Positions 18,089 to 63,626 of a stretch of DNA of 64,000 nucleotides are shown here, in pieces. The position numbers were made by a program, and so were the translations under genes. The notes under the pieces are model-generated. The model worked only from the letters and a program-made list of their open reading frames with translations, did no database searches and was not told the origin of the DNA. The stretch is taken from assembly GCA_964016885.1 (NCBI GenBank), contig OZ024744.1:7564001-7628000 (forward strand), written 5' to 3'. This DNA is from Eledone cirrhosa. Lineage: Eukaryota. Each line of letters starts with the position of its first letter. The stretch's first letter is position 1.

Positions 18089-18231
18089 TGTGAGAAAAAC
18101 CACAGACCCTCCATCTCAACTCACCTTTTGAAAAGCAGAAGAGCTGCGAAACCGGTAAAAGAACCAAATAAATATATATATATATATATATTTAAAAAAT
18201 AAGACTCCAGTTGCATTTTCGATTTCATCTC

Positions 18232-29346: not shown

Positions 29347-29514
29347 TAATAAACAACACAATATAATTATTCCATTACCCAAGTTTTCACGAAGTTAGAC
29401 GATTCTAACAGAAATATATCATCTGATGAACGAACTAGGCATTTCTGTTAGAACCGTCTAACTTCGTGAAACCTTGGGTAATGGAATAATTATATTGTGA
29501 TGTTTATTATATAA
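29347..29514. mobile_element. pLTR fold-back with hammerhead at 29419-29484 (+)
   Basis: TCAT-CTGATGA-ACGAA...TTCGT-GAAA-CC-ttg-GG-TA-ATGG; inverted arm 29347-29415. Confidence 0.75.
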
Positions 29515-36400: not shown

Positions 36401-36435
36401 ATATATATATTGTATATATATATATATATATATAT

Positions 36436-36796
36436 TGGTAAACGGTTTAGAAAATGCTGACAAATGGTTCACAGTTGAAAAATGGTTTAATTAGGAATAA
36501 AAGAGTATTAGTAATTGTATGGGTTAGTATTCAGTTGTGGTTTTAAGTTTTTAAGTTTTTACTGATCAGAGCAAACAACACGGACACTCTATCTCAAAAT
36601 TATTTTTGAAAAGCATTTAGAAATGCGCAACCGGTAAAAACTTAAAAACTTAAAACCACAACTGAATACTAACCCATACAATTACTAATACTCTTTTATT
36701 CCTAATTAAACCATTTTTCAACTGTGAACAATTTGTCAGCATTTTCTATTCCGTTTACCAATATATAATAACCTGTGTGTTACACCTCTATTCTTT

Positions 36797-36802
<6 letters not shown>
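36436..36802. mobile_element. Family-K pLTR fold-back; variant hammerhead at 36603-36639 (+)
   Basis: Inverted arm 36436-36562 matches 36634-36762; TTT-TTGAAAA-GCAT..ATGC-GCAA-CCGG-TA-AAA. Confidence 0.82.
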
Positions 36803-36852
<50 letters not shown>

Positions 36853-36862
36853 AACCAGTAAG

Positions 36863-36956
36863 ACCCCGACAGCTGAGCTCAAGCCGTTTCGACGGCTAAT
36901 TCTGGACTAAATGAAAATTTATCCTGGTATTTAAATAGCCGATCTTCTCAAGGGGT
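36863..36956 (-). ncRNA. Family-C hammerhead (U3-A8 core)
   Basis: Minus strand ACCCC-TTGAGAA-GAtCGGCTA...TAGCCGTC-GAAA-CGGCT-tgagctc-AGCTG-TC-GGGGT. Confidence 0.75.
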
Positions 36957-37028
36957 AATTCCATATATGGTCAAAGTGATTGGTCCAAAGCGTTATGGTC
37001 CACCTGGTTCCTTACCACTTTTCCTTCG

Positions 37029-37096
<68 letters not shown>

Positions 37097-37284
37097 CAAA
37101 GGAGGTGTGGTAAGGAACCAGATGGACCATAACGCACCAGAATACTCAATACTTAGGGTAGTAGAGTGGGAAATAGGAAAAAGTATGACCCCAACGGCAG
37201 AGCTCAAGCCGTTTCGACAGCTATTTCTGGTCCAGAAATCGCCGTCGAAACGACTTGAGCTCTGACGTCGGGGTCATACTTTTT

Positions 37285-44087: not shown

Positions 44088-44135
<48 letters not shown>

Positions 44136-44552
44136 TTGTCTTAAAAGACTTATTTTTCAGTTACTTCTCAATCAGGCGAAAAAGGACACTCTTTGACAAA
44201 TCTACATTTGGCGCAAGATCAATTTTTAACATTCACGTGACCTCTACCGACCAATCAAAATTGTTTTGACCACAAGAATTTTTGCAACACGAATTGGCGC
44301 GAAATTTATTTTAATACTTCTGGAGCCACTTTTTTCACATAAAACAGGTAGAATTTCCAAAATTAATCAGTTTAGAGCAAACATCACGGACGCTCTATCT
44401 CAAAATTATTTTTGAAAAGCATTAGAAATGCGCAACCGGTAAAACTTAAAACCAAAACTGAATACTAACCAATACTATTACTAATTTATACTCATTCCTA
44501 ATTAAACTATTTTTCACTGGGAACAATTTGTCAGCATTTTCTTTTCCTTTTA

Positions 44553-44557
<5 letters not shown>
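43140..44557 (+). mobile_element. 5'-truncated Neptune-like PLE (family K): GIY-YIG remnant, 3' UTR, pLTR with variant hammerhead at 44409-44444
   Basis: FTCASENLIYLLTCSGCREQYIGQTKNTLRQRMTVHRSQ; second copy at 62073-63627 (minus). Confidence 0.85.
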
Positions 44558-44612
<55 letters not shown>

Positions 44613-44713: not shown

Positions 44714-44785
<72 letters not shown>

Positions 44786-44978
44786 CGGAAGAAATGTGGT
44801 AAGGAACCAGGTAGACCATAACGCACCAAAGTACTCAATACTTAGGGTAGTAGAGTGGGTAATAGGAACGAGTAGGACCCCGACGGCTAATTAGCCATCG
44901 AAAATTAGCCGTCGAAACGGTTTGAGCTCAGCCGTCGGGGTCCTACCCGTTCCTATATATAAATATATATATATACAT

Positions 44979-45539: not shown

Positions 45540-46168
45540 ACCCCAGCGAACCAACCATATTCACTGAACCAGAAGAATTCTCCCCATCCCATTTTTCTTG
45601 AACATTATCTTTTGTTTGTCATAACATTCTCTAAAAGGCTACAAAATAAATTCCCAAATACGGGCCCGAAATTTAATGAACTTGTTCACGTGACAGGAAT
45701 AATTCCATTTATAACCAATAAAATTACATTTATGTAAAAAAAACCTTCGTGAGCCACCTTTTTTTAAGTAAAAAGAAATTCAAACAAACTGGCGCGAAAG
45801 CTGATGTGCTTATTCACGTGACTGCTGCATCAACCAACCACACTTCACTCATATATGAAAAAAAAACCTGACCCCCCCCCCTCCCATTGTTTGAAGAACT
45901 TTGTAACGCGAACTGGCGCGAAATTTATTATACTTATTCACCAACCAATCAAATTACTTCTCTAAAAACCTGGCATTTCGAGCCACTTTTTTCCATATAA
46001 AACAAGAAACATTCAGAGACCAACCAGATGTGAGAAAAACCACAGACCCTCCATCTCAACTCTACTTTTGAAAAGCAGAAGAACTGCGAAACCGGTAAAG
46101 GAACCAAATAAATATATATATATTTTTTAAAATAAGACTCCAGTTGCATTTTCGATTTCATCTTTTTT

Positions 46169-62053: not shown

Positions 62054-62072
62054 TATATATATATATATATAT

Positions 62073-63626
<1,554 letters not shown>

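Follow-up and report, generated by a model that had tools for sequence, protein, structure and literature searches.

The window analysed here is a 64,000-nucleotide stretch of Eledone cirrhosa contig OZ024744.1, from a 3.0 Gb, microsatellite-rich genome, and it contains copies of two repeat families, K and J, that carry hammerhead-like motifs. Hertel numbering of hammerhead positions is used throughout. The original prediction placed a core with a U3–A8 pair and GCAA instead of GAAA in three K copies, at the site occupied in J by a ribozyme with GAAA; the motif is present at 36603, 44409 and 62194 (minus strand) as described, and the J copies bear out the shared location and the GAAA box. The features of the window are as follows.

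36429–36562, minus strand: inverted partial K1 tail without a hammerhead, a fold-back inversion typical of Penelope-like insertions
36561–36803, plus strand: 5'-truncated K1 3' end with pLTR remnant, hammerhead and 'tail', ending in (TA)n; by-eye comparison with full-length L032
36594–36609, plus strand: predicted upstream hairpin, 6 bp, that would cover U3–A6 and some of the stem I 5' strand; a predicted off-state
36603–36639, plus strand: K1 hammerhead, minimal type-I, GCAA core, U3–A8 variant
36603–36605, plus strand: K1 stem I 5' strand
36606–36612, plus strand: K1 core U3–A9 (UUGAAAA, U3–A8 variant)
36613–36626, plus strand: K1 stem-loop II, predicted pair probabilities 0.96–0.99
36627 and 36628, plus strand: K1 G12 and C13, followed by A14–A15.1
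36631–36634, plus strand: K1 palindromic CCGG, followed by U16.1–A17
3' of 36636, plus strand: K1 predicted cut
36637–36639, plus strand: K1 stem I 3' strand
44130–44562, plus strand: K2 pLTR and tail, 5' limit approximate, by eye against the K2 row
44409–44444, plus strand: hammerhead of the older subfamily K2, GCAA core, loop II one T shorter
62066–62570, minus strand: K1 pLTR and tail, 5' limit approximate
62194–62230, minus strand: K1 hammerhead, GCAA core
18125–18160, plus strand: family J hammerhead, GAAA
21008–21043, minus strand: family J hammerhead, GAAA, one private stem II mismatch
46065–46100, plus strand: family J hammerhead, U3–A8, canonical GAAA

A relaxed hammerhead descriptor, run over both strands of the window, gave six matches: the three K motifs, one J motif, a motif at 29420 and one doubtful match. 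The motif at 29420 is a canonical C3–G8/GAAA type-I hammerhead of a different family, in which stem II is long and stem III has 3 bp. Another (TA)n-associated repeat, in inverted arrangement, adjoins K and J copies at 36850–37200 and 44780–44950. The K core matches YUGANRA with a Watson-Crick 3–8 pair (UUGAAAA, U3–A8) and has A15.1–U16.1 and an H17 cleavage site (A..UA); its G12 A13 A14 A15.1 box reads GCAA rather than GAAA. An Rfam scan of the window gave no hammerhead among 150 of 175 matches listed at E ≤ 1, a result that is uninformative for minimal variants, and the assignment is therefore based on the match to the descriptor, on where the motif lies in the element and on covariation. As judged by sequence, the K motif derives from a hammerhead but falls outside the strict consensus.

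Family K is a young, (TA)n-targeting EN+ Penelope-like retrotransposon with the hammerhead in its terminal repeat (pLTR). The full-length copy L032 comprises a repeat with a hammerhead, a 455-codon ORF1, an overlapping ORF2, a second hammerhead repeat 4.8 kb on and a (TA)n end. Intact ORF2 has 784 codons and encodes a reverse transcriptase followed by a C-terminal GIY-YIG endonuclease (L037:864-3215; RVT_1 E 4e-7, GIY-YIG E 2e-6, DKG motif visible), together with a C-X4-C-X2-C linker and a Cys/His motif, and copies end in (TA)n. Inverted pairs occur in L031 and L033–L040, and the pseudo-LTR, partial-tandem, 5'-inversion and tail features of Penelope-like elements are all present. A TA-targeting DNA transposon with terminal inverted repeats was ruled out by the reverse transcriptase, the endonuclease and the direct pLTRs. 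K resembles the EN+ clades Neptune and Nematis, as described by Craig et al. 2021 (PMC8557442), in its C-terminal GIY-YIG domain, CX2-5CxxC linker, CCHH motif, (TA)n targets and tandem and inverted insertions, a resemblance judged from these features, and differs from their description in its separate 455-codon ORF1, which overlaps ORF2 out of frame. There were no named reference proteins among the K homologues.

The reverse transcriptase segment of K has 99–100% matches at many loci, and copies lie at 1.0%, 3.0% and 3.4% from their own consensus in K1, K2 and K3, respectively (n = 48, 34 and 6). K3 shares loop II and more of the upstream repeat with J and is therefore probably the oldest K subfamily. 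J is an autonomous sister family whose ORF2 protein is 53–57% identical to that of K.

Three further observations concern the element itself. The out-of-frame ORF1/ORF2 overlap is alike in several K copies and J (L032:3907-3973, minus strand; L033:2252-2318, plus strand; L288 near 5700, minus strand), and a T-rich stretch just 5' of the ORF1 stop is a possible site of programmed frameshifting in an EN+ element. Fold-back inversion junctions cluster at a short TTTTTAAAAA palindrome in the K1 tail, a pile-up which suggests that 5' inversions form by snap-back priming. Close relatives of the K retroelement also occur in contigs listed as bacterial MAGs from invertebrate symbionts (L290–L375; P0027, P0061, P0064, P0071, P0082), likely as host contamination.

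Counting exact matches to patterns that leave position 13 open gave 6,085 K1, 3,865 K2 and 344 K3 copies, a total of ~10,300 in three subfamilies, and the reversed-pattern controls gave 0 matches for each K pattern, so the K motif is not due to chance. C13 is found in 98, 99 and 96 of the first 100 copies listed for the K1, K2 and K3 patterns, and A13 in only 9 of the 6,085 K1 copies. In a sample chosen without reference to the motif (the first 100 of 14,423 copies that match a tail pattern further downstream), 88 of the 91 copies covering the site have C13, as do all 55 readable 5' pLTRs among 90 near-full-length copies. Non-C alleles on the K-type stem number 160 genome-wide, with T the commonest among those listed, which is the pattern expected of private mutation; an ancestral K subfamily with GAAA was not found. 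Only J and K appeared among the first 100 of 26,011 matches listed for a broader pattern aimed at other CCGG-type families. In four contig runs aligned to L032:4700-5760, the rows listed have a loop II indel as the only change within the motif, and no substitution there reaches 5%; the runs coded organisms B and C contain near-identical sequence at trace depth and are not a cross-species test. Family J has 11,593 exact copies, with A13 in 100 of the 100 listed. C13 is fixed genome-wide in K, as the original prediction had held for the A13 replacement, and the K consensus is GCAA, not the GAAA that it had named as grounds for its own rejection.

A descriptor with position 13 free, applied to 86 related loci of other organisms, gave 25 matches (21 distinct) in 22 loci, all of them GAAA, and 0 matches in three shuffles. 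Since these 21 distinct hammerheads and J all keep GAAA, A13C is, on this sequence comparison, normally purged. Five of the related loci carry U3–A8 (L306, L325, L361, L366, L374) and all five keep A13; in a Penelope-like hammerhead at L342:117 the core pair is swapped to G3–C8. Lunse et al. 2017 reportedly also deals with metazoan Penelope-like hammerheads of the minimal type I. In the part of the literature covered by the search there was no natural fixed A13 change, and a natural fixed A13C is apparently unreported.

The original prediction treated U3–A8 and A13C as a double variant and counted A13 among the most conserved core nucleotides. U3–A8 is a known natural covariation (PMC3088659, PMC4209133) and only A13C is new; A13 is indeed invariant in nature, but biochemically it is among the milder core positions, as mutations of A6, A9 and A13 are given as inhibiting 10–100-fold in PMC4075628 (citing earlier work) and those of C3, G5, G8, G12, A14 and A15.1 as inhibiting >100-fold. 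All positions reported as >100-fold sensitive (the 3–8 pair, G5, G12, A14 and A15.1) are intact in K. The metazoan Penelope-like minimal type-I hammerheads described by Cervera and de la Pena 2014 (PMC4209133) have low in vitro activity and share with K the pLTR location, the G10.1–C11.1 closing pair, a tiny palindromic stem III implying a dimer and, putatively in K, a short stem I, and U3–A8 is described there in Schistosoma mansoni. K differs from them in having GCAA for GAAA, fixed in ~10,000 copies, and no extra unpaired base after A9; in the text of supplementary Fig. S3 of that paper all GAAA-box entries are GAAA (one AGAAA), from a descriptor that required GAAA. The natural core variants of Perreault et al. 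2011 (PMC3088659), namely A6C, U15.1–A16.1, a GAAA-box insertion and U3–A8, are rare, with reduced but detectable activity; they are single loci, with no A13 substitution among those named in the sections we draw on, whereas K is a high-copy family with a sister control.

One explanation of C13 is a fully active new core, in which A8 would alter the ground-state 8–13 contact, C13 would be neutral or compensatory and K would cleave about as J does. The copy number of K is like that of J (~10,300 versus 11,593 exact), and we would consider 8–13 epistasis plausible given the G8:A13 pairing named in PMC6257768. However, J and the five U3–A8 loci listed above keep A13, so A8 does not generally free position 13, and we regard a new core of this kind as very improbable.

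We analyzed the predicted folding of the motif. Stem II is predicted to be stable and is closed by G10.1–C11.1, with 4–5 bp and one double change between J and K (four sequences, three of them close kin). The putative stem I has 3 bp, with one double change relative to J; in K these are three U–A pairs with a predicted pairing probability near 0 in the monomer. The self-complementary ACCGGU would give a palindromic stem III, with a predicted homodimer energy of −10.3 kcal/mol. The predicted anti-core hairpin upstream has 6 bp in K and 4 bp in J, and the predicted ground state is two hairpins plus the dimer, not the active fold. An upstream sequence that could pair with the core UGA by at least 4 bp is present in K and J, and in 7 of the 21 other Penelope-like hammerheads versus ~2.4 expected from shuffles (a post hoc count); by eye, a number of rows in Cervera Fig. 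S3 have something similar. Such a UGA-pairing sequence may be a common off-switch.

J and K3, the K subfamily nearest to J, agree at all but 5 of 36 motif positions, the differences being a stem I pair (C–G versus U–A), a stem II pair (G–C versus U–A) and A13C. Four of the five differences thus form two compensatory base pairs, for which the chance of two complete pairs from five random changes is ~0.005; a column-shuffle control for covariation gave 28/500, and is weak with four sequences. Fourfold-degenerate ORF2 sites differ by 63–67% between J and K and the pooled flanks are 57% identical, so the 31/36 identity of the motif is a conservation peak (p 2e-4 against the pooled flanks; p 0.04 against the best flank block). 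The stem II change in K also gives rise to an upstream ORF of four codons, AUG to UAA, which crosses the core at 36623–36637 (J has CUG). Within it, A13C is synonymous and the predicted cut falls inside the stop codon; this ORF is probably a coincidence.

Constraint within K since C13 was evaluated from lineage-shared substitutions in 100 tail-selected copies. Core and stems have 0 of 33 sites with a lineage substitution versus 33 of 228 in the flanks (Fisher p 0.009; p 0.010–0.043 at other cut-offs), and the quiet stretch has p 0.064 in a scan-corrected test. Private mutations occur at equal rates (1.0% versus 1.1%), which rules out a mutational cold spot, and the flank rate is near neutral because many K2 and K3 copies differ from K1 at ~7–16% of fourfold-degenerate ORF2 sites (a few at ~2%). 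Inside the motif, lineage changes are confined to loop II, where they lengthen stem II in the order K3, K2, K1. T at C15.2 in 4 of 92 copies lies just under the cut-off. The comparison of stems across K subfamilies that the original prediction had called for thus gives unchanged core and stems and a longer stem II, with moderate statistical support, where it had named neutral decay of the stems after GCAA as the refuting outcome. The quiet zone also covers 16 nt upstream (−19 to −4), N7 and the loop AGAA, and, because these non-catalytic sites are conserved too, the conservation need not reflect catalysis. These comparisons provide moderate evidence for continued constraint on the K motif, and leave the selected feature unspecified.

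The motif could also be a dead hitchhiking ribozyme, in which A13C arose just before the oldest visible K subfamily and an irrelevant motif has had too little time to decay. The visible history of K is short (the ~7–16% at neutral sites), the conservation signal is moderate, with p up to 0.043 and a scan-corrected 0.064, and A13C cannot be dated because no K subfamily with GAAA was found, so that the compensatory changes may be older than A13C. Clades without hammerheads amplify well, and the hammerhead may be no more than a parasite of these elements (PMC8557442). We nevertheless consider hitchhiking unlikely, since zero changes in 33 sites at a neutral 0.10–0.145 per site has a probability of ~0.006–0.03, and the only lineage changes inside the motif extend stem II.

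Insertions end 130–170 nt 3' of the predicted cut. The cut site is spanned by 92 of 100 copies, and 31 of 90 near-full-length copies also extend across the entire 5' repeat, from which we conclude that uncut RNA is the usual template. Among truncated near-full-length K1 copies, 4 of 59 start at −2 to −1 of the predicted cut (hand counts, 90 of 100 copies). We evaluated repeat junctions as a cleavage footprint and rejected them: among the first 100 of 123 matches listed, K junctions number 23/16/9/9/9 at 0/−1/−2/−3/−4, plus 34 repeat triplications, with 40 in the K control window, whereas J is flat at the same positions (24/21/19/12/24, first 100 of 272 matches listed). An identical-context repeat 8 nt downstream has 87 junctions, mostly fold-backs, versus ~37 at the K cut with the same filter. 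The small excess at the K site is gone against this same-context control and absent in J, and is not evidence either way.

A close comparison is PAc, the Poseidon element of Anolis carolinensis (Frangieh et al. 2024, PMC11167929), in which, as in K, the hammerhead lies 5' of a 'tail' with alternative 3' ends and inserted copies span the uncut site. Unlike K, which has U3–A8/C13, two overlapping ORFs starting ~200 nt downstream and a Zn-finger linker, PAc has C3–G8 and a single ORF overlapping the ribozyme. According to that report, PAc initiates reverse transcription at an internal site in the tail, its hammerhead needs the protein in order to cleave, and hammerhead mutants still insert in vitro; some Penelope-like clades are described as having no hammerheads altogether (PMC8557442). 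The argument of the original prediction that repeated transposition implies an active core or a retained role for the fold is not sufficient by itself, given these mutants and clades.

The original prediction offered two outcomes, a new active core or a non-catalytic role, and both have been considered here; it omitted a third, a weakened yet useful ribozyme. Based on the observations above, we tentatively favor this third reading: the K hammerhead may be a slowed putative ribozyme, fixed for A13C, still under selection and probably cleaving only as a protein-assisted dimer. Two K motifs would pair through the self-complementary ACCGGU to build stem III, and the element's own protein would have to melt the upstream hairpin that hides the core. 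A13C would cost K 10–100-fold in cleavage, which a ribozyme that is off by default could afford, so that the change would be tolerated. Slow cutting would be tolerated, perhaps even favored, because reverse transcription starts 130–170 nt 3' of the 3' hammerhead and has to copy across that hammerhead in its uncut form. This reading is consistent with: (i) the intact >100-fold positions, the only changed core base belonging to the milder class (PMC4075628); (ii) the low substitution in the motif, the compensatory stems, the lengthening of stem II and the predicted dimer; and (iii) copies that span the cut site, together with the protein dependence of the PAc hammerhead and its dispensability for insertion in vitro (PMC11167929). 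Against it stand the GAAA of J and all related loci, the weak stem I of K and a core hairpin longer than that of J. U3–A8 may itself lower activity, as in the eLife scan (PMC9901934) the 3–8 pair is rescued only by a G–C swap, and the conservation covers non-catalytic sites, with a scan-corrected p of 0.064 and T at C15.2 in 4 of 92 copies.

Several of the same observations are compatible with a loss of catalysis, the sequence being kept for RNA dimerization via the palindrome, for protein binding or positioning, or as an overlapping DNA promoter element of the pLTR. The constraint extends beyond the core, with no lineage substitution from −19 to −4 and with N7 and the loop AGAA also present in J; the predicted ground state is not the active fold; hammerhead-dead PAc still inserts in vitro (PMC11167929); and Cervera and de la Pena (PMC4209133) allow functions other than cleavage. 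Yet all three subfamilies keep every single-stranded catalytic base other than 13, something not obviously needed for a role in structure alone, and we consider this explanation possible but rather unlikely. The wider proposition that K holds a hammerhead working or repurposed without A13, either an active U3–A8/C13 core with the upstream hairpin as off-switch and protein activation, or a catalytically retired hammerhead kept as a dimerization and packaging signal, is a serious if doubtful possibility.

The favored slowed ribozyme and its alternatives bear on why Penelope-like elements carry hammerheads, a question acknowledged as open (PMC8557442, PMC11167929). The K motif is a real core variant, fixed genome-wide, within a known ribozyme class and a known kind of retrotransposon, in which only A13C is new. 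Descriptor searches that require GAAA miss whole high-copy families of this kind. The two sister families form a natural experiment at similar copy numbers, J with a canonical core and K fixed for a substitution seen in 0 of 21 other related hammerheads, and J is a ready unmutated control for what Penelope-like hammerheads do. Comparison of K with J could separate 'slow cutting suffices' from a non-catalytic job of the fold and, if the hammerhead does work or has been repurposed without A13, either outcome would define what these ribozymes are for.
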